A stretch of DNA of 24,000 bases from Candidatus Deferrimicrobium sp. (GCA_035531115.1 DATKTP010000243.1:23433-47432), one strand, 5' to 3'. Positions 5,104 through 23,000 are shown, counted from the first letter of the stretch. Made by a program: numbers and translations. The notes: generated by a model not told the origin, from the sequence alone.

Positions 5104-6324
5104 TTACTTTTTAGATTTTGTTAAAAACTTCCGATAACTATTATTATATAGGACTTCAGCTTCTGAATCGTTTAATTTATTCGATAGTTTCGCTGCCCTT
5201 TTATATAATTGAGCGGCTGCAAGATACATACCTTCAGCAGCACGACTTCGTGCTTCCTTAAGAACCATGGCACGTTCGTCTTCGAGATTTTGTTTTTCAA
5301 TTTCGTATGAAGGAGTTTTTGGTATTGCATAACGGGTATAATAGATAAGAACAATTATTCCGATTATTGCAATTAAACTTATTATAAGAATGAAAATAAT
5401 GGATAAATTTGGAATTTCGATAGTTAATGTCCAGTGAATTAGATTTAGCCAGAGACGTAAATTATCAACACTATCAATCCAGTGGACGCCCGTATAATCA
5501 TAACTCCCTGTATCTGTAACATTCAGATCACTAAACATGACAGTTGAACCGCACAACACAATTCGAGCTGAACCTTGTTGAATAGCAAATAACCAGGGAG
5601 TTGAATAAATTATTGATTCATTATATTCTAAATAAGAATTGGAATATCCCGTTGAAATTATACCGCTTTCCTGTGTGACATTTAATCCAGAGGTAAATGT
5701 CAAAATATTTTTTAGTTTATACTTAATTGGATGGAATAATTTAAAATTGGTTTTCGCAATTTCAACTACCTCGCGCTTTCCAATGGGAGTATGGTCAGTT
5801 CCATTATGGTGTAAATCATACTGAGTGAATAATGCAGGAATACTCAGTGCTTGAGTAATATTGTTTAAATAATCAGCATGACCTGTTATATTTTCATCAG
5901 GTACGGGGACACTCACATCATTATAGTTACAAAGAAGGATCAAATTTCCCCCAAGTTCTGTATAATTTTTAAGTAAATCTATTTCAGTTATCGAAAAATT
6001 GCCGTCAGGTCCAGGATTCCCGATAATAATAAGGTCGTAATACAACATTTTTGTTAAATTTTCAAATTCCGCCTTATTTAAATAGACTTTACAATCATTC
6101 GTTTGATTAAGGTACGATAATGCGGTTTTAAAACGAGTATTTGAGTAGGTATAATATTGATCATGTGCCTCATCAAAAAGAATTGAAAAAGGACTTGAAG
6201 AAGAAGTGGCTTTCACATTTGCTAAAAAGAACTGGGTACAAAATAAAGTTATCAAAGTAATGACCATAAGGCTTAAAGCCGCTTTTTTGTAATACGAATT
6301 TAGTTTCAAGATCCAGAACCTCAA
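5104..6324 (-). CDS. Type-I membrane protein with an extracytoplasmic DUF4350-like (GATase1-like) domain, many N-glycosylation sequons and a helical cytosolic tail
   Basis: It has an N-terminal hydrophobic signal or anchor (AALSLMVITLITLFCTQFFLANVKA). ILFDEAHDQ...DLIIIGNPG...GGNLILLCN...ARIVLCGSTVMFSD...DNLRLWLNLIHW matches the DUF4350 pattern. A C-terminal TM (LSIIFILIISLIAIIGIIVLIYY) is followed by a tail of about 75 aa. The TTG start is uncertain. Confidence 0.7.
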   Translation of the reverse strand: MRFWILKLNSYYKKAALSLMVITLITLFCTQFFLANVKATSSSSPFSILFDEAHDQYYTYSNTRFKTALSYLNQTNDCKVYLNKAEFENLTKMLYYDLIIIGNPGPDGNFSITEIDLLKNYTELGGNLILLCNYNDVSVPVPDENITGHADYLNNITQALSIPALFTQYDLHHNGTDHTPIGKREVVEIAKTNFKLFHPIKYKLKNILTFTSGLNVTQESGIISTGYSNSYLEYNESIIYSTPWLFAIQQGSARIVLCGSTVMFSDLNVTDTGSYDYTGVHWIDSVDNLRLWLNLIHWTLTIEIPNLSIIFILIISLIAIIGIIVLIYYTRYAIPKTPSYEIEKQNLEDERAMVLKEARSRAAEGMYLAAAQLYKRAAKLSNKLNDSEAEVLYNNSYRKFLTKSKK

Positions 6325-11495: not shown

Positions 11496-12125
11496 TTAGT
11501 CAGGTTCTGTTAATTTTCGTAATTCCTCGAGGTCCTTTCGCGCTTTCTCTTTTCGAGAAATAGGCTCTGCGGGCTCTTCTGCAGGAATATCTGGTAGAGG
11601 GCCTTCTCCTAAGATTAATTCTGCTTCAAATCGGGAGAGTTCCTGATTAGCTTCAAGGTCTGAATCAAGTTCGTCTGTACTTGACATTTCAGCATAAATT
11701 TCGCCTACTTGGTCGATTTCTGCCATAGCAGCATCAGCTTCAGCGGCAACTTGCTCTGCTTTTTCGATGTTAATGTCTTTTTGTATAGTTTTCATTTCCT
11801 GCAGACCTATTTTAACCGCATTATCAACGCCTTTGATATCTTCCGCCTGATCAATGACAATAATCATATTTTCCAAACGTGAAGCATAATTTACGTAACG
11901 TTCAGCATATTTATTTAATCTGGACCATTTAACTAGTGCTTGTTTCGACGCTCGCTTGTTTCCACTCTTATAATATTGTTTCGCTTTATAATAATCCATT
12001 TGGGCTCGTTTTTTAAAGGCTCGCTCTCGTAACTCGATTTTATTAATCATTTGTCTCAATTGAGTGATAGTACTTTCCTTATCTTTTTTACCTCGTCCAG
12101 GTAATAACTTTTTCATGAAAGACAA
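11496..12125 (-). CDS. ESCRT-III subunit, Vps20/32/60 (Snf7/CHMP4-7)-like
   Basis: 209 aa. By eye it aligns to Snf7/CHMP4: NKRASKQALVKWSRLNKYAERYV...LENMIIVIDQAEDIKGVDNAVKIGLQEMKTIQKDINIEKAEQVAAEADAAMAEIDQV versus NKRAALQALKRKKRYEKQL...LE..NTNTEVLKNMGYAAKAMK...MDIDKVDELMQDI. It has an acidic C-terminal half and terminal Pro-rich and LxxLRKL motifs. Confidence 0.85.
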   Translation of the reverse strand: MSFMKKLLPGRGKKDKESTITQLRQMINKIELRERAFKKRAQMDYYKAKQYYKSGNKRASKQALVKWSRLNKYAERYVNYASRLENMIIVIDQAEDIKGVDNAVKIGLQEMKTIQKDINIEKAEQVAAEADAAMAEIDQVGEIYAEMSSTDELDSDLEANQELSRFEAELILGEGPLPDIPAEEPAEPISRKEKARKDLEELRKLTEPD

Positions 12126-12200: not shown

Positions 12201-14924
12201 TCATTTTAATTGAGTAGTAAGTGAATTAAAAAGGGCTTCAATTTGTTGTATATCGGGTTGTTTTGGGGTAGTAACAACGAAAACAATGAGGGATTGAGTT
12301 GATTCAATTATTTTTGCGATCGAAAAAGCGATTTTAAATCCTTCTTTTGAAATGAGAAATACTGGTAAATCAGTATCAGAAATTATTTTGTCAATAACCC
12401 ATCCTTTTTGAAGAAGTGCATCTTGGATATGAGTTATTATAAGGGATGGAGTTTCGGAAAGAGTTTTGATGAAAATTTTTTCATGCAAATTAGAAGACCC
12501 GACGGGATAAAGATGTTTTCGATATTTATAAAGAAGTAGGCGTTTCATATAATCTTCAAGTTGATTTTTAGGAAGATTAATTTCGAAAAAAGGAGTTTTA
12601 GATTCACTAAGATCTTGAACTTTCATATCATCTTGTAATGGTGATGATGGGGAACTTGGAGGCAGTGTAATAAAGGTGGTCTCATCGGAGGGCTTTTCAG
12701 GAGAGCTGGGTGTTAAACTAGAAAGGTCAGGTATTTCAGGAACATCAGGGCGTATAATAATTGGTCTATCCATTTGATCTATAATTTTCGGAAGGCTTTC
12801 TCTACCTGCATGTTGGCTGATCCGTGGACGGATGCGAGCAACAAAGATGCGATTTGTCGTGATTGATTCATCGGCAATCACGCATACCCCTACTGGAAGA
12901 CTACGGAAAAAGGCAGCATCGTTTACTTCATGGGGGACATTACCAGGGGCACGATGAACAAAAGAATCTATATCTGAGGAGTACGTGAGAAAATGGCAAA
13001 AAGATTTGTCTAATTGGGAAAGAATTTGTACATTGGTTGCACTCGGTTGTTGAGTACAAAGAACTAATCCGCACCCTGGTTTTCGGCCTAATTTTGCATA
13101 TTGGACAAGGGGTTCTGATGCCGCTGTATTTCCACGTGCTGGTGCGAGAAGATGGGCTTCATCAATGAGAATCCAAGTTATTGGAATACTCTCAATTGCT
13201 TCACCCTCATCGATAGAAATTTTAGCAGCTTCAACTTGGCGGGATATTTGAAGCCGAGCACGAAGCACTTTTCGTGCGAGAATTCCAGTAATTAATGCAT
13301 GAAGATTTTGGTCGAGCACGCTCACATCTACAATTGATATTTGATTGGGTCTTGACAATTCAATAAGGGGTGTTCCTTCATCTGAAAAAATACCCCATTC
13401 TTTGGCAATTTCAAATCGCGAGACCATAGCCCTTCGGGTTTGACGTGTAAAGCCCTTATCCTTGTCGGTAACAAATGTAGAGGTGTTCATACAACGAATT
13501 ATATCTTCGAGAGAATACTTATCCCCTTTTCCTTTCACTTTTACTATAGAATCTTTCAATTCGGCTTGAAATCCTTCCTGAACTAATTTAATCGTTTTTT
13601 CAATAAGGATACCACGTGGACTAAACCGACTGACATCGAAAACATAACACCAATCATCAACACTTAACTCTGAGGGTCTAATGGAGAAGGATTCATCTTT
13701 TGTTTCCTTAGGTGTTAAATTAAAGTGCCCTAAGGGAACAAATACTTTTACATTTTCTTGAAAAGATTTTGGTTCTAGATTCCATTTTTCTAGAATTTTA
13801 CGTTCTTTTTCCTCCCAATTTGCGTATTTCATACTCCAATAAACGCCAAGGGGATCCAGGATAATAACTCCAATACCTATCTGCGCCGTAGCTAGTTCTT
13901 CGGCAATAACACCCATCGTATAACTTTTACCACTTCCACGATGCCCCGATATAAAAATTACATGAGGTTGAGTACAATCAAGTAAGAGTGTTCGACCATA
14001 GTGCCCTAATCCGTGAGCAGGGCGTTCCGAAATTTTCCCAATGTTAAGAGTCCCCTTCAAGCCAATTTTCCGATGCAACCCTTCAGAACGCCCAATTACA
14101 ACAGCTCCGGTCTCATTATCAACCAATAATTTTAAATGTTCTTTAATATGGGGGGTAAAGGTATTGAAAATTTCCTCATCCCAGATTTTCGTCTCTCCGA
14201 GAACATAAGCTAACGCCAGATGAATGGTTTCAAAATCTGAGACTTCATTCTCAAGAAGTAGATCAACTTTAGCCTTGCAAAATCGACGAAATTCCGGCGT
14301 ATTGGGATATTGATCCGGTTGAAAGTCCGAGACTTCCCAAATATAGTAATCGAGGCTATCACCTTTCGAGAGGTTTTCTTTCGGTATAATCAGTTCATAA
14401 GCTTGAGTGAGGATTGCTTCATCTCGGGTTATAAGATAACAAATGGTCAAGCACTTTATCTTTTCAATGCCCGTAACGTTATTTAAATTTTCTAAAAGCT
14501 GTATCCTATATTTTTCTTCTTTGGTCTTCTCCAATGCTTGATAGAGAATAATTGAACTGCCAGGACTGGGGGATTCCTCTTCATATACATGATTAAAGAG
14601 GACATCTGGAATTCTTTTTAGAAAGGGAAATTCTTCAATTCGTAAGGTGGCAATCATAGCATGTTGAAGCTTATTCGCCGAGATCGGATCCTCTCGTAAT
14701 AATTTAATAAGCCAATCTTCAATATCCACATCAGGTAAAATCTCCTTGATTAATTTTAAAATGGTATCTCTCAAATTCTGCAGATGCTGAATATCACTCA
14801 CTAAATTATATTGTAATATATAAATATCCAATAATAGAATTTGTTCTTTTAGTGATTTGGGAACAAGATCCCGAACTTTATTAAAAACTTTGATGATATC
14901 GTTATGTTCTATCACATAATTCAC
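12201..14924 (-). CDS. HerA/FtsK-superfamily (DUF87-type) P-loop ATPase with a unique N-terminal helical domain (about 270 aa) and a C-terminal linker plus alpha/beta domain (about 180 aa)
   Basis: Walker A is HVIFISGHRGSGKSYTMGVIAEEL (nt 13923-13946). Walker B is ITWILIDEAHLLAP (nt 13152-13175). GCGLVLCTQQPSATN, SRFSPRG and RIRPRISQHAGRE are typical of HerA-like DUF87 ATPases. No TM segments were seen. Confidence 0.8.
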   Translation of the reverse strand: MNYVIEHNDIIKVFNKVRDLVPKSLKEQILLLDIYILQYNLVSDIQHLQNLRDTILKLIKEILPDVDIEDWLIKLLREDPISANKLQHAMIATLRIEEFPFLKRIPDVLFNHVYEEESPSPGSSIILYQALEKTKEEKYRIQLLENLNNVTGIEKIKCLTICYLITRDEAILTQAYELIIPKENLSKGDSLDYYIWEVSDFQPDQYPNTPEFRRFCKAKVDLLLENEVSDFETIHLALAYVLGETKIWDEEIFNTFTPHIKEHLKLLVDNETGAVVIGRSEGLHRKIGLKGTLNIGKISERPAHGLGHYGRTLLLDCTQPHVIFISGHRGSGKSYTMGVIAEELATAQIGIGVIILDPLGVYWSMKYANWEEKERKILEKWNLEPKSFQENVKVFVPLGHFNLTPKETKDESFSIRPSELSVDDWCYVFDVSRFSPRGILIEKTIKLVQEGFQAELKDSIVKVKGKGDKYSLEDIIRCMNTSTFVTDKDKGFTRQTRRAMVSRFEIAKEWGIFSDEGTPLIELSRPNQISIVDVSVLDQNLHALITGILARKVLRARLQISRQVEAAKISIDEGEAIESIPITWILIDEAHLLAPARGNTAASEPLVQYAKLGRKPGCGLVLCTQQPSATNVQILSQLDKSFCHFLTYSSDIDSFVHRAPGNVPHEVNDAAFFRSLPVGVCVIADESITTNRIFVARIRPRISQHAGRESLPKIIDQMDRPIIIRPDVPEIPDLSSLTPSSPEKPSDETTFITLPPSSPSSPLQDDMKVQDLSESKTPFFEINLPKNQLEDYMKRLLLYKYRKHLYPVGSSNLHEKIFIKTLSETPSLIITHIQDALLQKGWVIDKIISDTDLPVFLISKEGFKIAFSIAKIIESTQSLIVFVVTTPKQPDIQQIEALFNSLTTQLK

Positions 14925-14996
14925 CTAATATAACAAAAAAAATGCCTTTTATTACTATTAACGAGATTCTGAAAAAAAGGAAAGGCATCGAGCTTT

Positions 14997-15617
14997 TTAC
15001 CGTTCTTCTTTGATTTTTCGAATCTCTTCCTCTAATTTTTGAATTCGAGTATCTGCTGGAGTTGATGGTAGCGCGACTCCCGTTTCTACTGCAATTTCTT
15101 GATTAATTTCTTCCATTGTTTTTTGGACATCAGTATCAGTTATTTCTGTTGAAACGGTTATCTCTTCTAGACCTCCTTGCGCGACTTCTTGTGCCATCTC
15201 AAAATGTTCGATTTGTGAATCAATACCGTCGACAAGCTGGGCAATATTTTGGGTCCGGACGGAACTTTTCAAAGCACCTAATGCCCGTGTTATTCCTCCT
15301 AATATCTTCGCGGTCTCGGCAACAGCTTGTGATTGCTTCAATTTCATTAATAAATTCATAATATGTAGGCGATACGCATCTATCCCCCAAGCCCACTTCT
15401 GATACCGAACGAAATGCTCTGCATAGAGCTTTGCAGCATCACTGTTCCCATCCATCTGATATTTTTTCGCTTTAGTCCGATTATTTCTTGCCTCTTTTTC
15501 GAGTTGTTTGCGTTGGCGGTCCAACTTTCTCGTAAAAACATCGACCTTGAAGATGATGTCATTTAAATTTGTACCCTTCAGCCAATTCACAAATTTTTTC
15601 CAAGACATTTCAACCAT
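14997..15617 (-). CDS. ESCRT-III subunit, Vps2/24/46 (CHMP1-3)-like
   Basis: 206 aa. By eye it aligns to CHMP2: LDRQRKQLEKEARNNRTKAKKYQMDGNSDAAKLYAEHFVRYQKW versus LDRERQKLETQEKKIIADIKKMAKQGQMDAVRIMAKDLVRTRRY. The C-terminus IQKLEEEIRKIKEER is MIM1-like. An alternative ATG start lies 9 nt downstream (15608). Confidence 0.85.
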   Translation of the reverse strand: MVEMSWKKFVNWLKGTNLNDIIFKVDVFTRKLDRQRKQLEKEARNNRTKAKKYQMDGNSDAAKLYAEHFVRYQKWAWGIDAYRLHIMNLLMKLKQSQAVAETAKILGGITRALGALKSSVRTQNIAQLVDGIDSQIEHFEMAQEVAQGGLEEITVSTEITDTDVQKTMEEINQEIAVETGVALPSTPADTRIQKLEEEIRKIKEER

Positions 15618-15844: not shown

Positions 15845-16999
15845 ATGTCTAAAGAACTTTTTCAGCACGCGATGAATATTGCGAAGAAGGCAATCCAATT
15901 TGATGAGAGTGGAAATTATAAAATGGCAGTGAACAATTATGTTGAAGCGGCGGATATTCTCACAAGATTTATTAAGACCTCGGGGAATCCTGAAATGAAG
16001 AAGATCTGCTTTTCTAAAGCAGAACAGTATTTACAACGTGCGAAAGAGTTACGGGATGCAATTTCGCCGGAGGGGCCTGGGCATCCTTCAGAGGGAACCG
16101 GAAGATCGGCAAAGGAGACGACCCAATTACGGGGAGCCTTGGAAGAAACGATCACGAGGGAAAAACCAGATGTAAGCATGGCAGAGGTAGCTAACTTGGA
16201 AAATGCCAAACAAGCCTTACGAGAGGCAATTGTGCTTCCCCTCCAGCGACCAGATCTTTTTCAGGGGGCCCGAAAACCCTGGCGAGGCGTGCTCTTATTT
16301 GGACCTCCAGGGTGTGGTAAAACATTATTGGCAAAAGCCATTGCAGCCGAGTGTGAAGCTACCTTTTTTTCGGCAGATGCGGCCTCTTTGGTAAGTAAAT
16401 GGCTAGGTGAAAGCGAGAAGTTAATTAAAGAATTATTTAAACTGGCGAAAGAAGACCAACCCTCTATAATTTTTATCGATGAGGTTGACTCAATTGCGAC
16501 CGCCAGAGGAAATAGGGATGAAATTGGAGGAGAGCGACGTATAAAAACGCAGCTCTTAATAGAAATGGAAGGTGTTAAAGGGAAGGCGCAAGAAAGAATT
16601 ATCATTCTCGGCGCCACAAATCGTCCATGGGAAATAGATCCTGCTTTTCGGCGTAGATTTGAGAAAAGAGTCTATGTGCATTTACCAGATGAAGCAGCAC
16701 GGGAAAAAATGTTTATGATCCATACAGACGGAATTCCGCTAGAAGCGGATGTTAATTTTAGTGAATTAGCAAAAATAACAGAGGGGTATACAGGTTCCGA
16801 CATAGCACTCCTTTCCCGCGAAGCCATTATGATACCGATTCGAGAACTCGATAAAATAGGCGCGCTATCAGACGATGCTGAACCGCGGGACGTGAAACGA
16901 ACAGATTTTATTGAGGCAATGTCAAAAATGAAGCCGGTTGTTTCACCAGATGAATTACGGAAATTTGAAGAATGGAACGATCAATTTGGTGCGGAATAA
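15845..16999 (+). CDS. vps4: Vps4 AAA+ ATPase (N-terminal MIT domain plus a single AAA cassette)
   Basis: The MIT-like N-terminus is AMNIAKKAIQFDESGNYKMAVNNYVEAADIL...AEQYLQRAKELRD. Walker A is GPPGCGKT (16301-16324) and Walker B is IIFIDEVDS. It also has the second-region-of-homology sequence ILGATNRPWEIDPAFRRRFEKR and the C-terminal helix ELRKFEEWNDQFG. Confidence 0.95.
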   Translation: MSKELFQHAMNIAKKAIQFDESGNYKMAVNNYVEAADILTRFIKTSGNPEMKKICFSKAEQYLQRAKELRDAISPEGPGHPSEGTGRSAKETTQLRGALEETITREKPDVSMAEVANLENAKQALREAIVLPLQRPDLFQGARKPWRGVLLFGPPGCGKTLLAKAIAAECEATFFSADAASLVSKWLGESEKLIKELFKLAKEDQPSIIFIDEVDSIATARGNRDEIGGERRIKTQLLIEMEGVKGKAQERIIILGATNRPWEIDPAFRRRFEKRVYVHLPDEAAREKMFMIHTDGIPLEADVNFSELAKITEGYTGSDIALLSREAIMIPIRELDKIGALSDDAEPRDVKRTDFIEAMSKMKPVVSPDELRKFEEWNDQFGAE

Positions 17000-17036: not shown

Positions 17037-17507
17037 CTATAAGGGAGTTGGAAAAATTCCTAATGTTTTTAGTTTCTGATATGCATTTGTAAATTTAGAC
17101 ATAATGTTTTCTTCCTGAATGAACGCTGAAATGTTATATCCCTTCTTTTCTAGCAGAATTTTAAATTTAAAAATATCAGAAATGAGAAATTTAAGTTGTT
17201 CATTATAGATTTGAGCATCAATCTTCCCGAGTTGGTAATTTGAGATGATGGTATCGAGGGTTGCAATGCTAGCATAGAATTCTGCTTGAGCATGTTCTAA
17301 AGTATGGGCTTCAACTTCTGCTTCGGTGATCCTAATGGGAATTTCTAATGGAGGCGGGTTTGATTGATTTTTCACGGTTGTTTGTAAAATATTTTTAACG
17401 GTTTGTGTCTGCTGGACAACTTTTCGGTTTAATTTAGTGATTTCTGCTTCTAATTCGTCGATTGACTTTTCATCCATTTCATTTTTGGGTTTATTTTTTT
17501 GGATCAT
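17037..17507 (-). CDS. ESCRT-I subunit Vps28-like (N-terminal core domain only)
   Basis: 156 aa. AQAEFYASIATLDTIISNYQLGKIDAQIYNEQLKFLISDIFKFKILLEKKGYNISAFIQEENIMSKFTNAYQKLK aligns by eye to the human VPS28 core [75 protein letters not shown]. Its start is 9 nt after the upstream Vps23-like stop. Confidence 0.7.
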   Translation of the reverse strand: MIQKNKPKNEMDEKSIDELEAEITKLNRKVVQQTQTVKNILQTTVKNQSNPPPLEIPIRITEAEVEAHTLEHAQAEFYASIATLDTIISNYQLGKIDAQIYNEQLKFLISDIFKFKILLEKKGYNISAFIQEENIMSKFTNAYQKLKTLGIFPTPL

Positions 17508-17516
17508 AATGGAAAA

Positions 17517-18419
17517 TCACTGAGTAATACCCATTTCTTTCAATTTCTGATTAATCAAATGTAATTCTTTTTGATAATTTTTGTAGAGCTGTGCGTATTC
17601 CGTAGAATTGATTTCACCACATTCGAATTTATCTTCCAAAGTCCGGATTAAATCCTCTACAGCAATTTTTTCACTTTGAAGATCGAGAATTTGTTTATCT
17701 CTCGGATTTTGAGGAAGTAAGATTTCAGCAATTCTATCACCAAGCCTTGGAACGTTATGAACATCCATACGCCCTTCAAGGCGCGCGACTTCCTCCGTCT
17801 TATTAACCAAGGATTTCTGTAAGGATTGAAGTTCATCCTCTAACATGTCAATTTGTGTCTTTAACTCCTTTACCTTCGGGGTTTCCTCTGGGATTTCTGA
17901 GGAAAACGGGGTAGAAGTCTCAGCTGAAGGTTGTTCTGATTTAATGGGAGGAGCGGGAGAAGGAGCTTGTGGTATAACAGGTAATTGTGTCTGAAATGGG
18001 GTGGGTGGAGCTTGTTCTAGCTGGTTCGGAACTTCTTCTTGGGGAGAAGTTAATGTAGATGCGAAAGTATCCGGTAACTTTGGCGAAATTCTAGCAAAGA
18101 TGCCTTTTATTGAATTTATGACCTGATAGAGATGGTATTCAGAACGCCAATAGGTTATTATTCGCAAATTTAACTCACCAGATCTAGGATCTACCTGTGG
18201 ATGATCAGTGGGAGTAACCATTATGACTTTAGGAGCTTGCCGAGGAAAATCGGAAGGGATTAGAATTTCAACTTCAAATTGAATATTTTCATAAGGTCCG
18301 CGTCCAGGAATGGAGCCCCGCCATTTAGTTAAATTTCCTGCTACTGGCTCGAATTCTCGTGCCCGTCTATACATAAGTTGGGCTTCTCTGGCGAGGATAA
18401 ATTCAAACTGGGAACTCAT
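17517..18419 (-). CDS. ESCRT-I subunit Vps23/TSG101-like: UEV (catalytically dead E2-fold) domain, Pro-rich linker, coiled-coil stalk, steadiness-box-like C-terminus
   Basis: The E2-like N-terminus is FEPVAGNLTKWRGSIPG...FEVEILIPSDFPRQAPKV...HPQVDPRSGELNL, where Leu/Asn replaces the active-site Cys. The P-rich segment spans aa 112-181. The C-terminus AVEDLIRTLEDKFECGEINSTEYAQLYKNYQKELHLINQKL resembles the TSG101 steadiness box AIEDTIFYLGEALRRGVIDLDVFLKHVRLLSRKQFQLRALMQK. I prefer the ATG at 18419 (TGGAGG 10 nt upstream) over the TTG at 18443 in the track. Confidence 0.8.
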   Translation of the reverse strand: MSSQFEFILAREAQLMYRRAREFEPVAGNLTKWRGSIPGRGPYENIQFEVEILIPSDFPRQAPKVIMVTPTDHPQVDPRSGELNLRIITYWRSEYHLYQVINSIKGIFARISPKLPDTFASTLTSPQEEVPNQLEQAPPTPFQTQLPVIPQAPSPAPPIKSEQPSAETSTPFSSEIPEETPKVKELKTQIDMLEDELQSLQKSLVNKTEEVARLEGRMDVHNVPRLGDRIAEILLPQNPRDKQILDLQSEKIAVEDLIRTLEDKFECGEINSTEYAQLYKNYQKELHLINQKLKEMGITQ

Positions 18420-18534
18420 AGGATAGTGCCTCCAAAGATACAAATCAATTGAAATCTTAAATAAAGTAGTAAATGCTTTCCTTTAATATTTTCTATTAAT
18501 TTTAGTCCCTATAAAATATTGAGGATTGAGGATT

Positions 18535-18945
18535 TTAAGTATCAGAGAGTTTTTTTACCACTTGAGTTATTCGGTCTTGGAAGACGCGCACTGATCCAAT
18601 AAAATCAATAATTAATTTTGATAAGTCACTTATTTTTTCCAATTGAGCGTTTTCTCTTTCATCAAGGCGCTTATTTAATACATTGATACTCTCTTTAACT
18701 GCTTCAAAAGAAATAATTTCTTCAGATATTAATTTTCTCAAACTTTTCAATTCTTTTTCGATTGTATGCAATTGTTTATACACCTCATTATTTACAGTTT
18801 CTTGTGTACGAATCATATCGGCATTGAGTATATTCATTGCTTCACAGATCTGTTTTAAACTAGCTAAAGTTGGAACGTCACCTAATGGAGTTTTAATTGC
18901 CTCAATTTTAATATCTATTTTTTTCTCGTCTGCGTCGCCAACCAT
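18535..18945 (-). CDS. Coiled-coil protein of unknown function (candidate additional ESCRT-I stalk subunit)
   Basis: 136-aa ORF with an ATG start, predominantly heptad-like helical sequence. It is co-directional with, and upstream of, the Vps23-like and Vps28-like genes. No family was recognised. Confidence 0.55.
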   Translation of the reverse strand: MVGDADEKKIDIKIEAIKTPLGDVPTLASLKQICEAMNILNADMIRTQETVNNEVYKQLHTIEKELKSLRKLISEEIISFEAVKESINVLNKRLDERENAQLEKISDLSKLIIDFIGSVRVFQDRITQVVKKLSDT

Positions 18946-19105: not shown

Positions 19106-19351
19106 ATGACTAATAAAATCTCTAATCGGTTTATTATCACTTCCGAAATAATAATCGGGGAGTGGGATTGGAATAGACTAGAGCGCTGTATAGTCTGTAA
19201 TCTCCCCATTACGCAAGAGCAGAAATTAGGTAGATGCCCTGATTGTGGTCATTCCGCACATCTTGAACATTTATTAGAATGGATCAAAATTAAGGGTGTG
19301 TGTCCTTATTGTAAAGGAAAAATAACTGCGGAAAAAATAATTATAAATTAA
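19106..19351 (+). CDS. Small RING-type zinc-finger protein (candidate E3 ubiquitin ligase)
   Basis: 81 aa. The ligand spacing is C28-x2-C31-x15-C47-x-H49-x2-H52-x2-H55-x10-C66-x2-C69. This matches the RING cross-brace spacing with His at ligand positions 4-6. It lies directly upstream of the ubiquitin, E2 and E1 genes. Confidence 0.7.
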   Translation: MTNKISNRFIITSEIIIGEWDWNRLERCIVCNLPITQEQKLGRCPDCGHSAHLEHLLEWIKIKGVCPYCKGKITAEKIIIN

Positions 19352-19590
19352 ATAGATTACTAAACGCGTAGGAAAATACAAAACTTCATAGCCATCCTCA
19401 TTAGATCGTTACCTCTCCAGCTATTGCTGTAACAATATTATCTTGTAATAAAAGATCGATATGAAAAAAATACAAAACTTAATATTTTATTCTTAATTAA
19501 ATTAATATTAAAATAGAAATGAAGTGTATTACGAAAAATATAAAATTAAAATCAAGCAAATCAAAAAGATATGATGGAGGAAATTAGGAA

Positions 19591-19827
19591 ATGATTCTAA
19601 AAATCGTGTCTGCAATTGGGGGGGATGTGATCGAACTCAATACACCCCCAACTACAACAATTTCTGAGATTAAAAGGGAAATTAGCCGAAGAAAACGAAT
19701 TCCAGAAGGAATTTTTGTTCTCGCTTTCAGGGGTACTGAAATAAGAAATGAAAATCTATCTTTGTTAGATATAGGGGCTTCTGACTACGACAAGATTTAT
19801 TTAATCACCCGAACGGAAGGTGGGTAA
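19591..19827 (+). CDS. Ubiquitin-like beta-grasp protein ending in Gly-Gly-stop
   Basis: 78 aa. TISEIKREISRRKRIP aligns to ubiquitin TIENVKAKIQDKEGIP, and VLAFRGTEI aligns to RLIFAGKQL. The C-terminus ...LITRTEGG is followed directly by TAA. A GGAGG Shine-Dalgarno sits at 19576-19580. Confidence 0.85.
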   Translation: MILKIVSAIGGDVIELNTPPTTTISEIKREISRRKRIPEGIFVLAFRGTEIRNENLSLLDIGASDYDKIYLITRTEGG

Positions 19828-19833
19828 TTCTAC

Positions 19834-19866
19834 TTCTTTTTTAAATAACCACATCTTTTTTAATTT
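19834..19866 (+). terminator. Two T6 runs after the ubiquitin gene (candidate terminator or attenuator)
   Basis: T6 runs occur at 19837-19842 and 19856-19861, within 40 nt of the ubiquitin stop. The E2 gene starts 132 nt downstream. Confidence 0.3.
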
Positions 19867-19959
19867 TAATTAATAATATTTTTTTAGCTGCTCTGAACCA
19901 TCTGAATGTGGTTAGAATAATTTATAATTACCACACATCTGAATAGTAACTAAAAATAA

Positions 19960-20445
19960 ATGGTAACCAAGATGTTAAGTGAGGAAGATTACTATAATAG
20001 GTTAGTGTATGAAGCGAAAATATTAGAAGAGGAAGAGCCGTCGTTCAAACCAGTGGCAGGAGATCTAAGAGTTTGGAACGGATTTATTTTAGGAACAGGG
20101 CTTTATGATGGGGGAGTCTTTGAAATTCAATTAACTTTAACGAGGAAGTTCCCATACGAACCTCCAAAAATCAGATGGATAACTAAAACATATCATCCCA
20201 ACATTTCATTGCAAAGTAAAATTTGTGTTGGAATACTTGGAAAAGATTGGGTTCCAACTATGAGTGTTGCAGGTGTGATAGAAACACTCAGAAATTTATT
20301 AAGTTTTCCCAATCCCGCCTCGCCATTGAATACTGAGGCAGCAAATCTCCTGAAAAAAGATAAAAATAGATATGAAATGGAAGTTAAGAAATATGTAGAA
20401 AAATACGCAACTTGGGAAAATTTAAGAAAAACCCAAACGATGTAA
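19960..20445 (+). CDS. E2 ubiquitin-conjugating enzyme (UBC fold, active)
   Basis: It has the canonical motif YHPNISLQSKICVGILGKDWVPTMSV, with HPN at aa 79-81 and the catalytic Cys89 at nt 20224-20226. The downstream SFPNPASPLNTEAA motif is also present. Confidence 0.9.
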   Translation: MVTKMLSEEDYYNRLVYEAKILEEEEPSFKPVAGDLRVWNGFILGTGLYDGGVFEIQLTLTRKFPYEPPKIRWITKTYHPNISLQSKICVGILGKDWVPTMSVAGVIETLRNLLSFPNPASPLNTEAANLLKKDKNRYEMEVKKYVEKYATWENLRKTQTM

Positions 20446-20454
20446 GGGGGTTTT

Positions 20455-21732
20455 TTGGGTATAACAACAAAAAATAAGAATCAGGTTAAGGAAGTTCAGG
20501 TTCAGGGAGAATTAGAAAGATATAGCAGACAAATGCTTTTAAAGAATTGGAATCAAGAGAAATTATTGAATTCTACTGTTTTTATTGCAGGAGTTGGGGC
20601 TCTTGGGACGATCATTGCGTTAAATCTTGCGATGATGGGTGTGGGACACTTAATTTTATGTGATTTTGATACCATAGAGCTCTCGAATTTAGCGCGCCAG
20701 GTACTCTTTGAGAATAAAGATATTGGTAAATCAAAAGTTGTAACGGCAAAGGAAGCTCTTGAGCGAATCAATCCTACAATTAAAATTACCGCTATCAATA
20801 AGCAGTTGGAAACGATTAATCATAAGATTATTGAAGCATGTGATATAGTAGCAGATGGTTTGGATACATTTGAAGCACGAAGATGGCTCAACTCCGTTTG
20901 TATCACACTAAATAAGCCCTTAGTACATGGTGGTATGTTTGGATGGATGGGAAATGTACAGGTCGTTATTCCATTTAAAAGACCCTGTTTAGAATGCCAT
21001 CCACTCATCCCTCAAGAGCGCCTTCAAAAACCTTGTACCCCGCCAGGGGATGCGCGAAAAGAGTTAGAAGCAGAGGAAAAAGAAGAAAAAATTCCAACAC
21101 TAGCTACGGTTTCTACGATTATAGCTGGAATTCAATCACAAGAAATCATTAAGTTACTTATAGGATCCGATAAAATCTTGGATGAATTTCTTTTTTATGA
21201 TGGCCAATCGGAGACAATAACAAGAATGCCACTCATTCTTAATCCAAATTGCATTGTCTGCGGAAAATACCGGTTAGAGGGGATAGATTTCGCAATAGAT
21301 AACGAAGATACTATTCGCGATATAAAAAATAGGTTAATAATGTCTTGGGGTTTAAAAGAACCAATGCGGGTTGTTATTAAAGGTGTAATCCAAGAAGATA
21401 ATATAAAAATTCATGATTTAAAACTCAAAGAAAGAGAAGCGATTTTTGTATATGATAAAATTCTTTCAAAACCCTTAAAACTATATACGGTCTTAAAAGG
21501 AGCTGAGTTTATTCCAGAAGTTTCTGTCATAGCTCCGAAAAAAGAAGTTAAACCAGGTTCCAAATGGTCAAAAATGCATGAACTCGCTGTAGATGTGGGG
21601 AAAGTAACCTATCAAAAAAATCTTTTGCAAATTCAAGCAACCGATGCGGAGACCCCTATTCGATTCTTTCAGACAACGTCAATCTCAAAAATGAAGAAGA
21701 AAATAAGATATAAGTTAAAGGAAAGTAAATAA
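20455..21732 (+). CDS. E1-like ubiquitin-activating enzyme (ThiF/MoeB/UBA adenylation domain) with a C-terminal extension of about 150 aa
   Basis: RYSRQMLL...VFIAGVGALGTIIALNLAMMGVGHLILCDFDTIELSNLARQ is the Rossmann/ATP-binding signature. Two CxxC pairs are present (C178/C181 and C266/C269), with a candidate catalytic Cys194 in KPCTPPG. It has a TTG start 9 nt after the E2 stop, preceded by AAGGGGG. Confidence 0.9.
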   Translation: MGITTKNKNQVKEVQVQGELERYSRQMLLKNWNQEKLLNSTVFIAGVGALGTIIALNLAMMGVGHLILCDFDTIELSNLARQVLFENKDIGKSKVVTAKEALERINPTIKITAINKQLETINHKIIEACDIVADGLDTFEARRWLNSVCITLNKPLVHGGMFGWMGNVQVVIPFKRPCLECHPLIPQERLQKPCTPPGDARKELEAEEKEEKIPTLATVSTIIAGIQSQEIIKLLIGSDKILDEFLFYDGQSETITRMPLILNPNCIVCGKYRLEGIDFAIDNEDTIRDIKNRLIMSWGLKEPMRVVIKGVIQEDNIKIHDLKLKEREAIFVYDKILSKPLKLYTVLKGAEFIPEVSVIAPKKEVKPGSKWSKMHELAVDVGKVTYQKNLLQIQATDAETPIRFFQTTSISKMKKKIRYKLKESK

Positions 21733-21778: not shown

Positions 21779-22609
21779 ATGTATGAAAAACATAAAATAC
21801 CTTATTTTGTACAAAAGAAGATGGAAGAGGGCGGTCCATCGAAAGAAATTTTCCGAGGCAGAATCCTCTTTGATCAATCACGGGAAAAGGATAAATGGCT
21901 TAATGAACATCATTCAGAATTTTTACTATTATTAACGAGTAATGGGTATTCCATCAGTAAAATAACGGAAGGTCCAATTAATTATGCCAATATGAAAGAT
22001 TTTGATATTCTCGTTTTATCCGCAATCCGAACCGGTTCTATGGATTTCAATGCAGTTGAAATTCGATCTATTGCGCAATTTGTGAGTGATGGGCGGGGAT
22101 TATTTCTAATTGGTAATGAATATATTGGGAAAGAGAAGAATTTCAACTATCTATTCAATCAATTATTTGGAATTTCTTTTAGTGATCAAGTATTAGATAA
22201 AGAAAATAATGCAAATCCGGCAGCAGGATGGAGCCATAGCCCGATTATTAGTATTTTTGTCGATCATAAAATAACTAAACAACTTGAAGAAATTGTTCTT
22301 CGAGATGGCTCTGGGTTAAATTTAACAAAATCTTCAGAACCTCTTGCTTTCTCTGCTCCAACAGCAGAACCTGCCTGCGTGCCTGTCATTGGAGCGACAG
22401 AATATGGAAAAGGAAAAGTAATTGCAATTGGCGGGGACGGTATTTTTACAAATGACCCTAGAATCGGTATTAATGCCCGGGATAATGAGCAATTCATTTT
22501 AAACGCATTGGATTGGATGCCATCTTGGACGGATTGTCCACAATGTGGAAGTGGAGTGCCGCCTGCTGAATCACTATGTCCTCGTTGTAAAACACGCGTT
22601 CTACGGTAA
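21779..22609 (+). CDS. Cytosolic DUF4350-like (GATase1-like fold) protein with a C-terminal zinc ribbon
   Basis: ILFDQSREKD...FDILVLSAIRTG...FVSDGRGLFLIGNEY...GKVIAIGGDGIFTND...DNEQFILNALDWM parallels the ectodomain of the 5104-6324 protein. The C-terminal CPQCG-x9-CPRCK motif (nt 22535-22606) is a zinc ribbon. No signal peptide or TM was seen. It lies 46 nt downstream of the E1 gene on the same strand. Confidence 0.65.
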   Translation: MYEKHKIPYFVQKKMEEGGPSKEIFRGRILFDQSREKDKWLNEHHSEFLLLLTSNGYSISKITEGPINYANMKDFDILVLSAIRTGSMDFNAVEIRSIAQFVSDGRGLFLIGNEYIGKEKNFNYLFNQLFGISFSDQVLDKENNANPAAGWSHSPIISIFVDHKITKQLEEIVLRDGSGLNLTKSSEPLAFSAPTAEPACVPVIGATEYGKGKVIAIGGDGIFTNDPRIGINARDNEQFILNALDWMPSWTDCPQCGSGVPPAESLCPRCKTRVLR

Positions 22610-22616
22610 AGGTTGC

Positions 22617-23000
22617 TTAAGAACCTTCATCTACCTTTACTACTTCATCCTTTAAATTCTGAGCGAATAATCTGAGCATCCCTAAAGGAATTTTATTGAC
22701 CTTCGAAGAAAGAATCGCATAACTGATATCATTATTTACGGGACCCACCATTAAAAAGAAATTTTCGGATTCAAATATCTGATTGATGAAATTTGCTTTA
22801 TCCATATGCAAATCTTTTAAAGCACGCTCTCCTGCATCGATTAATCGATTTGCGGAACCCCAAATGCCTTCTGAATCATTTAATCCACATGTTTGCTCTG
22901 CAATTTTTAGTCCATCATTATTTAAAAGCATTACACTCCCGGCACTCATCTTCCGGATTACATTAGTTAGAATGCGATCAAATACTTTTGATTTATGCAT
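22617..23000 (-). CDS. Roadblock/LC7 (MglB-like) domain protein
   Basis: 127 aa with an alpha-beta-alpha-beta-beta-alpha pattern: FDRILTNVIRKMS / GSVMLLNNDGLKIAEQ / GSANRLIDAGERALKDL / INQIFESENFFLMVGPVNNDISYAILSS. This is typical of the Roadblock/LC7 family. Confidence 0.65.
   Translation of the reverse strand: MHKSKVFDRILTNVIRKMSAGSVMLLNNDGLKIAEQTCGLNDSEGIWGSANRLIDAGERALKDLHMDKANFINQIFESENFFLMVGPVNNDISYAILSSKVNKIPLGMLRLFAQNLKDEVVKVDEGS

Follow-up and report, generated by a model that had tools for sequence, protein, structure and literature searches.

We have analysed a 24,000-nucleotide stretch of DNA, called the window here, which is deposited as Candidatus Deferrimicrobium sp. (GCA_035531115.1, DATKTP010000243.1:23433-47432). 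[quoted passage not shown] The position of the gene is not a chance insertion. On the evidence of its sequence and gene order, the ATPase is probably a dedicated, conserved and previously unrecognised partner of the ESCRT-III module in Asgard archaea, with ESCRT-IIIB as its most consistent associate. The HerA clade itself is known; what is new is the architecture of this member and its conserved association with ESCRT-III.

Linkage of the ATPase gene to ESCRT-III genes

In the open reading frame list and its translation, the gene begins with GTG and encodes 907 residues. Considering that a database protein of 904 residues (P0001) is 100% identical to it and that the orthologs begin with MIEH, translation probably starts three codons further in, at the second GTG, giving 904 residues. 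The upstream neighbour, 72 nucleotides away, is an ESCRT-IIIA gene of the Vps2/24/46 or CHMP1-3 type (14997..15617, minus strand; Pfam Snf7, E-value 9e-21), the product of which showed its best Protein Data Bank (PDB) matches to CHMP1B, CHMP1A, CHMP2A and CHMP3. The downstream neighbour, after 75 nucleotides, is an ESCRT-IIIB gene of the Vps20/32/60 or Snf7/CHMP4 type (11496..12125, minus strand; Pfam Snf7, E-value 2e-16), best matched by the Loki Vps20/32/60-like structure 9fn1 and the Heimdall ESCRT-IIIB structure 9ftl. All three genes are on the same strand, and a Vps4 gene with MIT, AAA and Vps4_C domains in Pfam (15845..16999, plus strand) is divergent from ESCRT-IIIA. These results bear out the first-pass annotation, made by a model from the sequence alone, which had placed a 907-residue ATPase between two ESCRT-III genes with spacers of these lengths and divergent from vps4. 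That annotation had also seen no NurA nearby, and indeed no NurA, Mre11 or Rad50 was found in the window reading frames scanned or in the related loci inspected.

The annotation had further called for a survey of the gene neighbourhood, holding that its proposal would fall if orthologs were never linked to ESCRT genes. For this survey, one genome per GTDB species was scanned, the best 80 of at least 587 relatives were kept, and profiles of the N-terminal domain (N-domain) and of Snf7 were applied to them. A Snf7 gene was located within 10 kb at 14 of the 18 loci with the N-domain, from several Asgard classes, and at none of the 62 loci with the core only (Fisher's exact p = 2e-12, uncorrected for the phylogenetic non-independence of the loci). 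The four N-domain loci without Snf7 comprise three truncated contigs and one with just 6.7 kb of downstream sequence, and linkage thus co-occurs with the N-domain in all but four short or truncated loci. It is kept in contigs with orthologs at 68%, 44%, 37-40% and about 35% identity. Orthologs in related genomes are therefore linked to ESCRT genes, and the annotation's central idea of an ATPase with a conserved ESCRT association is strongly supported.

The gene order showed a common plan with variations among lineages. Helarchaeota have IIIA, ATPase and IIIB; the Jord/Frey and Loki-type loci have IIIA, ATPase, a helical protein of about 345 residues termed c2, and IIIB; the Hod-like loci have a divergent Vps4 followed by IIIA, ATPase and c2; and the Heimdall-type loci have ATPase, c2 and IIIB. 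When the ESCRT-III genes were typed by BLAST, the IIIA-type gene lay upstream of the ATPase in every case and the IIIB-type gene downstream. Vps4 adjoins the module in Hel, Hod-like and Loki-type loci and is not nearby in Heimdall-type and Jord-type loci. A complete cluster, in GCA_004524165.1 (locus L090), contains E1, E2, ubiquitin, RING, UEV-Vps23, Vps28, Vps22, Vps25, Vps4, IIIA, ATPase and IIIB, while a White Oak River contig (L091) carries Vps25 and Vps4 upstream, a methyltransferase gene, and then IIIA, ATPase and IIIB. Outside the block, the flanks are Sec61-beta, MazG, CBS and PolD in Helarchaeota; TauE, a methyltransferase and proteasome alpha in Jord-type loci; and LarC-like genes, proteins of about 1030 residues and Cdc48 in Heimdall-type loci. 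The order of the block is kept while its outer flanks all differ, and this is a signature of selection on the block itself. In some lineages the intergenic gaps fall to 6 nucleotides and some genes overlap, indicating co-expression in those genomes.

On the other hand, gene order may be inherited without direct coupling. The ATPase would then be a housekeeping archaeal DUF87 protein, active for instance in DNA repair and perhaps sharing only cell-cycle regulation with its neighbours. The core (residues ~250-715) belongs to a widespread and highly conserved archaeal family with members in at least 587 species genomes, being 42-47% identical, among the matches listed, in Thermoplasmatota, Methanofastidiosia, Theionarchaea, Hadarchaeota, DPANN and others. 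By domain profiles, these core-only relatives have neither accessory domain, and they stand in lineage-specific housekeeping contexts: those of DPANN lie directly behind a Hel308-type helicase gene, others near TrmI, an aEF1A-like GTPase or a GHMP kinase, and some are fused N-terminally to winged helix-turn-helix (wHTH) domains of the TrmB, MarR or RPC3 kind. Among the loci examined, the non-Asgard members are never beside Snf7. The oligo-T tracts in the upstream spacer of the window, described below, also suit a reading without coupling. However, the order is retained across deeply divergent Asgard classes in which every outer flank has changed, the linkage tracks a lineage-specific domain with the few exceptions named above, and gaps of about 6 nucleotides and overlaps in some genomes indicate co-expression. 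We consider inherited order without coupling unlikely.

The pattern is consistent with an early acquisition of the N-domain in the Hel/Loki-type, Jord/Frey, Hod and Heimdall lineages. Since ESCRT association co-occurs with this domain, we infer that it is the best candidate for the determinant of ESCRT specificity.

In the searchable literature we found no report of a linkage between ESCRT and HerA/DUF87 genes in Asgard archaea, and a prior mention elsewhere is possible. The main text of the ESCRT survey by Makarova et al. 2024 (PMC10936438) is silent on the ATPase, and its supplements list just incidental canonical HerA-NurA genes. Hel_GB_B, the genome of our locus L011, is among those whose synteny is shown in Fig. 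1C of Hatano et al. 2022, judging by the figure legend; the searched text passages of that paper contain no comment on the ATPase gene.

Some further features of these loci were recorded. The c2 protein is all-helical, has about 300-370 residues and carries a nearly invariant DDPSL near its C-terminus. It sits between the ATPase and ESCRT-IIIB in L004 (13067-14107), L005 (12710-13711), L016 (9179-10231) and 14 more loci of the Jord/Frey, Loki-type, Hod and Heimdall lineages, and is absent from every Helarchaeota locus, the window included. A divergent NurA or other nuclease was considered for c2 and found no support, as the protein is all-helical, has no Pfam, PADLOC or PDB match and is unrelated to the N-domain. 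Upstream of the ATPase, the Heimdall-type loci L005-L007, L019-L023, L039, L049 and L050 conserve genes for one or two uncharacterised proteins of about 1030 residues, a protein of about 345 residues and a Ni_insertion protein (PF01969). After ESCRT-IIIB, most Heimdall-type loci that are long enough have a Cdc48 gene and a conserved 90-residue gene. Locus L021 (DATKZI010000013.1) is labelled Bathyarchaeia and has the exact Heimdall-type neighbourhood (c8, c12, c11, c8, ATPase, c2 in our family labels); the contig is probably mis-binned or mislabelled.

Domain architecture of the ATPase

The centre of the protein (12804..14138, minus strand) consists of a short beta neck (residues ~275-316) and a HerA-type RecA-like core (residues ~320-707), as supported by Pfam, Foldseek and phmmer. 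Pfam DUF87, the HerA central domain, matched residues 327-553 with 62.1 bits against a cut-off of 23.2, and HerA_C fell narrowly below its threshold (21.6 against 22). The Walker A motif GHRGSGKS (residues 327-334; 13923..13946, minus strand) aligns with the HerA P-loop, with G327 and R329-S334 invariant. The Walker B motif WILIDEAH (residues 584-591; 13152..13175, minus strand) aligns with the HerA hhhEEAH motif, with D588, E589, A590 and H591 invariant. They are followed by the block KLGRKPGCG...TQQPS (residues 613-627; 13044..13088, minus strand), in which GRKPG takes residues 613-617 and TQQP residues 624-627; it holds a conserved arginine motif and a sensor-like motif and aligns with EGRKFGVGL...SQRPS of HerA. 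An arginine-rich RPRISQHAGRE stands at residues 699-709. In an alignment of 41 orthologs with identity down to about 30%, Walker A, Walker B, GRKPG, TQQP and RPRISQHAGRE are all invariant, indicating that the ATPase is under selection as an active enzyme. In phmmer comparisons with PDB chains of Thermococcus and Sulfolobus HerA, the Walker A, Walker B, GRKxG and (S/T)Q(R/Q)P blocks align likewise.

An AlphaFold2 model of the whole ATPase reached a mean predicted local distance difference test (pLDDT) score of 83.6 and a predicted template modelling (TM) score of 0.72. When it was searched with Foldseek against the PDB, all 50 listed matches were HerA, HerA complexes or unnamed cryo-electron microscopy entries. 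These 50 had E-values from 1.8e-15 to about 3e-11 and target-normalised TM-scores of 0.41-0.57, and identity to the HerA chains and complexes was about 16%. Thermococcus HerA-NurA 9x1m, Sulfolobus HerA 4d2i, Deinococcus HerA 7wrw and the HerA structure 8wld stood at the top, with E-values of 1e-15 to 1e-13. Motifs, profile and predicted fold agree in placing the ATPase in the HerA clade of the FtsK/HerA superfamily. The first-pass annotation had read the same HerA/DUF87-type Walker motifs and arginine motif, and its outline of a helical N-terminal domain and of a linker followed by a C-terminal domain is matched by the model. By analogy with its structural relatives, the protein is most likely a soluble P-loop ATPase that forms a hexameric ring.

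The structural matches also include SIR2-HerA and DUF4297-HerA defence complexes, and assignment to a defence or conjugation family was the other outcome that the annotation had named as fatal to its proposal. The gene might accordingly be read as part of an anti-phage or mobile element module of the HerA-SIR2 (Nezha), HerA-DUF4297 or conjugative VirB4 kind. The likeness to HerA subunits of defence complexes speaks for it, together with weak PADLOC and NCBIfam matches. The NCBIfam matches scored 22 bits against a cut-off of 850 and 32 against 590, and those of PADLOC mostly cover a core segment of about 60-165 residues, one (mad8) spanning residues 316-647. No SIR2, DUF4297, nuclease or conjugation genes were seen in the 28 N-domain loci or in L090 and L091, and, in contrast to a defence island, the neighbourhood is stable and has been inherited vertically. 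No such family assignment holds. Considering scores so far below threshold and the lack of an effector, we rejected the defence-system assignment, and we regard a module of this kind as extremely improbable.

The N-domain (residues 1 to ~255/262; 14139..14924, minus strand) is all-helical with 13 helices, as supported by models, Foldseek and the domain hidden Markov model (HMM). Modelled alone, it reached a pLDDT of 90.8, and its best Foldseek matches were the toroids of GH76 (mannanase), GH88 and C3d, with a query-normalised TM-score (TMq) of 0.55-0.58 and E-values of 0.02-0.1. Independently, its profile matched GH76/AGE/LanC repeats weakly (E-value 2e-3). On this basis the domain is, as predicted from sequence and model, a degenerate (alpha/alpha)6-toroid-like scaffold. 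A MIT-like domain was considered here and ruled out by the lack of a MIT match in Pfam and by the toroid result of the fold search. The N-domain HMM matches only the 28 loci of the Snf7-linked type, all of them Asgard orthologs. A search of its profile against an index of 5.8 billion proteins returned a single fragment and missed known positives, and is uninformative about other architectures.

The core is followed by a disordered, acidic, Pro/Ser-rich linker (residues 708-777; 12594..12803, minus strand), recognised by pLDDT values below 50 and by alignment of the ortholog linkers. Its sequence varies by clade, yet each clade keeps a short hydrophobic motif of its own: D-E-(T/S)-T-Y-I-x-L-P-P-S in the Hel clade, LPxVVxGETSxxIDL in a second Hel/Loki group, EEEMVEVAPDISIP in Jord, and RDVVIE with LIPEPIP in Heimdall. 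They resemble short linear interaction motifs. We also considered P[ST]xP "late-domain" motifs in the linker as a dock for UEV-Vps23; three occur in the window protein against 0.43 expected from shuffling, and they are absent in most orthologs, so this candidate was dropped.

The protein ends in a compact alpha/beta domain (C-domain; residues 778-907; 12204..12593, minus strand) with a model pLDDT of about 85-90. It has no Pfam family, and a sequence profile search of the PDB gave only designed coiled coils, which are spurious. As to the two accessory domains that the first-pass annotation could not assign, the N-domain could thus be described as toroid-like from its model and Foldseek, and the C-domain is left without a family by the Pfam and PDB sequence searches. 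The C-domain is very rare, with 36 cluster representatives among 1.84 billion proteins, and nearly all are C-terminal in the same ATPase. A few standalone homologs of about 130-150 residues were observed (P0135, at L089:8001-8399; P0137; P0140; P0148). One standalone protein, on a contig of a metagenome-assembled genome (MAG), is encoded two genes from a gene for a small GTPase of the Arf/Ras family, and neither the ATPase nor Snf7 is encoded close by. Jord/Frey-type ATPases of about 1015 residues (P0123, P0128) have an extra tail past the C-domain that ends in LHEYYxLGRMTExEYxFLKRKxFxKIExL and, by eye, resembles a SHOCT-like helix.

Possible functions of the ATPase

The ATPase has no transmembrane segment, the top 19-residue hydropathy being 1.66 and lying inside the Rossmann core; therefore its localisation must be supplied by a partner. 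In the reading that we favour, and hold tentatively at somewhat less than an even chance, the ATPase would be a translocase of DNA that is brought to ESCRT-III necks. The ring would dock onto ESCRT-III or other ESCRT assemblies by its N-domain, its C-domain or the linker motifs, and the docked motor would burn ATP to translocate a polymer through its pore. With DNA as the substrate, it may act on chromosomal DNA caught in a membrane neck that ESCRT-III is constricting, by clearing, segregating or processing it. It would then be a functional analogue of bacterial FtsK that is anchored by ESCRT-III and not by a transmembrane domain; the first-pass annotation had proposed chromosome clearance or DNA pumping on the same analogy. 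DNA is favoured as the substrate because every characterised HerA, to our knowledge, is a translocase of double-stranded DNA, and because relatives of the ATPase are fused to wHTH domains or neighbour Hel308. It is favoured also because, in a heterologous system, an association of Asgard ESCRT-III proteins with chromatin has been reported (bioRxiv 10.1101/2021.11.29.470303).

Several observations weigh against a DNA translocase at ESCRT-III necks. In terms of DNA handling, no nuclease signature was found in c2 or the other neighbours, Pfam scans detected no DNA-binding domain in the Asgard architecture, and the N-domain, with its strongly acidic net charge of -16, is not itself a DNA binder. 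A full HAS-barrel, which forms the N-terminal domain of HerA, is not evident in the model, where about three short strands (residues 275-316), or about 45 residues of beta structure, precede the P-loop. The FtsK/HerA superfamily includes the protein translocators EssC/EccC and VirB4, and NCBIfam gave weak matches of the ATPase to EssC and VirB4. In terms of distribution, no full-architecture ortholog from Odinarchaeota or cultured Lokiarchaeales was among the matches listed, and the Thorarchaeota paralog is unlinked to ESCRT-III; the ATPase is therefore not essential to every Asgard ESCRT system. Finally, the 72-nucleotide spacer upstream of the gene (14925-14996) contains runs of T7 and T8 and then TTATATTA right before the start codon of the ATPase. 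Oligo-T tracts are archaeal termination signals, and those of the spacer argue against obligatory co-transcription in the window genome. The spacer could be a terminator with an internal promoter, in which case the three genes would not form a simple operon here, and the shared operon that the first-pass annotation had suggested is uncertain for this genome. A shared operon is much more plausible, judging by spacing, in lineages with gaps of about 6-50 nucleotides.

Some of the same observations point to a protein substrate. The ATPase may be a second, non-AAA+ motor of ESCRT-III, the alternative that the first-pass annotation had offered. This HerA-type ring would serve to thread or remodel protein cargo, be it ESCRT-III subunits or other proteins, or to nucleate or cap the IIIA/IIIB copolymer, and it would work beside Vps4 or in its place. 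The gene stands exactly between the two filament-subunit genes in an order kept across Asgard classes, and Heimdall-type and Jord-type loci are ESCRT-III-linked without a nearby Vps4. The superfamily has protein-secretion ATPases, to which the weak EssC and VirB4 matches correspond, and neither a nuclease nor a DNA-binding domain was detected in the Asgard architecture. The accessory domains, moreover, resemble protein-interaction scaffolds, with an acidic toroid, a tethered small domain and short linear motifs. However, the closest solved structures are all DNA translocases, the N-domain does not resemble MIT, and the protein showed no known module for binding ESCRT-III. Where Vps4 is kept beside the module, as in Hel, Hod-like and Loki-type loci, another disassembly enzyme is not obviously needed. 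We consider a second ESCRT-III motor the less likely reading, but one with a substantial minority share.

DNA could also be moved outwards. A HerA-type pump docked at ESCRT-III buds may load DNA into outward vesicles or protrusions and so enable gene transfer. A core with the fold of the HerA DNA pump and its tight genomic coupling to ESCRT-III fit this idea. In Sulfolobales, ESCRT-dependent vesicles contain DNA, and the packaging ATPases of many double-stranded DNA viruses are members of the FtsK/HerA superfamily. However, the idea is purely inferential, and the neighbourhood has no conserved genes for a capsid, a portal or vesicle cargo. We give DNA loading a low probability, and functions outside all the readings considered here a similarly small one.

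Returning to the DNA translocase, a broader picture can be drawn, although we think it improbable as a whole. In the Hel/Loki-type, Jord/Frey, Hod and Heimdall lineages, ESCRT-III may ancestrally have been a two-motor machine, with Vps4 and a HerA-type DNA pump on the IIIA/IIIB polymer, that coupled DNA handling to scission by neck clearing or by loading DNA into vesicles, the pump being lost towards eukaryotes. If this is true, the pump would be the counterpart of FtsK that has long been postulated for archaea, and it would occur in the nearest relatives of eukaryotes. Iyer and colleagues are said to have proposed HerA as the archaeal FtsK analogue in 2004, and the question has reportedly been open since. 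The Asgard ESCRT system is a reference point for reconstructing the origin of eukaryotic membrane remodelling, and a HerA-clade motor kept between IIIA and IIIB across lineages implies that a functional partner has been missing from it. If the ATPase pumps DNA, ESCRT-III scission would be tied to archaeal genome segregation, with an echo of the chromatin-linked roles of eukaryotic ESCRT-III, e.g., in sealing the nuclear envelope and in the abscission checkpoint. If its substrate is instead the filaments, ESCRT-III could be driven by a non-AAA+ motor. Both outcomes can be tested with the recombinant Asgard ESCRT-III proteins that several laboratories already use.

Surrounding genes, distant relatives and known systems

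By its gene content, the window is a typical Asgard ubiquitin-ESCRT locus. It comes from a Helarchaeota-like genome, since the closest homologs of its ATPase, among the matches listed, are proteins of Helarchaeota MAGs. Beyond Vps4, a profile scan identified an ESCRT-I protein with a UEV/E2-like domain and a Vps23 core (17517..18443, minus strand). It is flanked by genes of 156 residues (17037-17507) and 136 residues (18535-18945, coiled-coil-like) without a family match; by their position, they could be Vps28, Vps37 or steadiness-box type parts of ESCRT-I known in Asgards. A ubiquitin-type modification block on the plus strand (19106..21732) consists of a RING finger of 81 residues (19106-19351), an E2 of 161 residues (19960-20445) and an E1/ThiF protein of 425 residues (20455-21732). 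No ubiquitin gene was identified among the window reading frames scanned; the related locus L090 has one at the equivalent position. At this end the window also encodes a DUF4350 protein (21779-22609) and a Roadblock/LC7 protein (22617-23000). At the opposite end, a 406-residue protein (5104-6324) has an IFT52 GIFT-domain match below threshold. Its orthologs in L001 and L002, with a faint GIFT match, adjoin PolD, as does an unannotated 388-residue gene in the same position in L003.

Among the more distant relatives, a Thermoplasmatota core-only protein (about 1100-1250 residues) is followed on the same strand by a protein of about 300 residues that just passes Pfam EMC6_arch (L044:13174-14088, with equivalents in L033, L046, L052, L055 and L059), a conserved partner of another kind, which may hint at a membrane-related role of the wider family. 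The Thorarchaeota paralog (L074-L088) has 670-770 residues, a weak C-domain match, no N-domain and no Snf7 nearby; it has a conserved block of its own, in which it is joined by a methyltransferase gene of the GCD14/TrmI type and by uncharacterised genes of about 120 and 131 residues.

In comparison with known systems, the ATPase shares its fold, Walker A, the hhhh(D/E)EAH motif, GRKxG and (S/T)Q(R/Q)P with the HerA of the HerA-NurA(-Mre11-Rad50) end-resection machinery (4d2i, 9x1m). It differs from canonical HerA in its low identity of about 16% and in scoring 46 bits in the NCBIfam helicase_HerA equivalog model against a cut-off of 970. Whereas those HerAs are linked to a nuclease, the Asgard ATPase is linked to ESCRT-III; it lacks a NurA, Mre11 or Rad50 neighbour and a clear HAS-barrel, and it adds a 260-residue alpha/alpha-toroid N-domain, a disordered tether and a C-terminal alpha/beta domain. 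With SIR2-HerA/Nezha and DUF4297-HerA it shares strong structural matches and the plan of a HerA ring with accessory partners, but it has no effector partner, its context is vertically conserved, and the HerA_antiphage models gave 18-22 bits against cut-offs of 800-850.

A looser parallel is offered by Cran1, an OLD-family ATPase needed for cell-cycle progression in Saccharolobus (PMC12796447). Cran1 likewise comes from an ATPase family better known elsewhere, in antiphage defence, and has a cell-cycle role in an archaeon that divides by ESCRT; its ATPase family is unrelated, and its phylum and gene neighbourhood are different.

FtsK and SpoIIIE belong to the same superfamily, and the role proposed here for the ATPase, that of a DNA pump at work where a division or scission site closes, follows the paradigm of FtsK. 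On the other hand, the ATPase is of the HerA clade, has no N-terminal membrane anchor and matched neither FtsK_SpoIIIE nor FtsK_gamma in Pfam. In genomic position the ATPase is like Vps4 (ESCRT-IV), the canonical ATPase of ESCRT-III and another ring ATPase encoded beside ESCRT-III genes, and the two may act on the same assemblies. The N-domain is toroid-like, without MIT; recruitment of the MIT type, as known for Vps4, is not used by the ATPase. In contrast to the AAA+ fold of Vps4, it has the RecA-like HerA/FtsK fold, and the two ring ATPases are encoded together in many loci, including the window.

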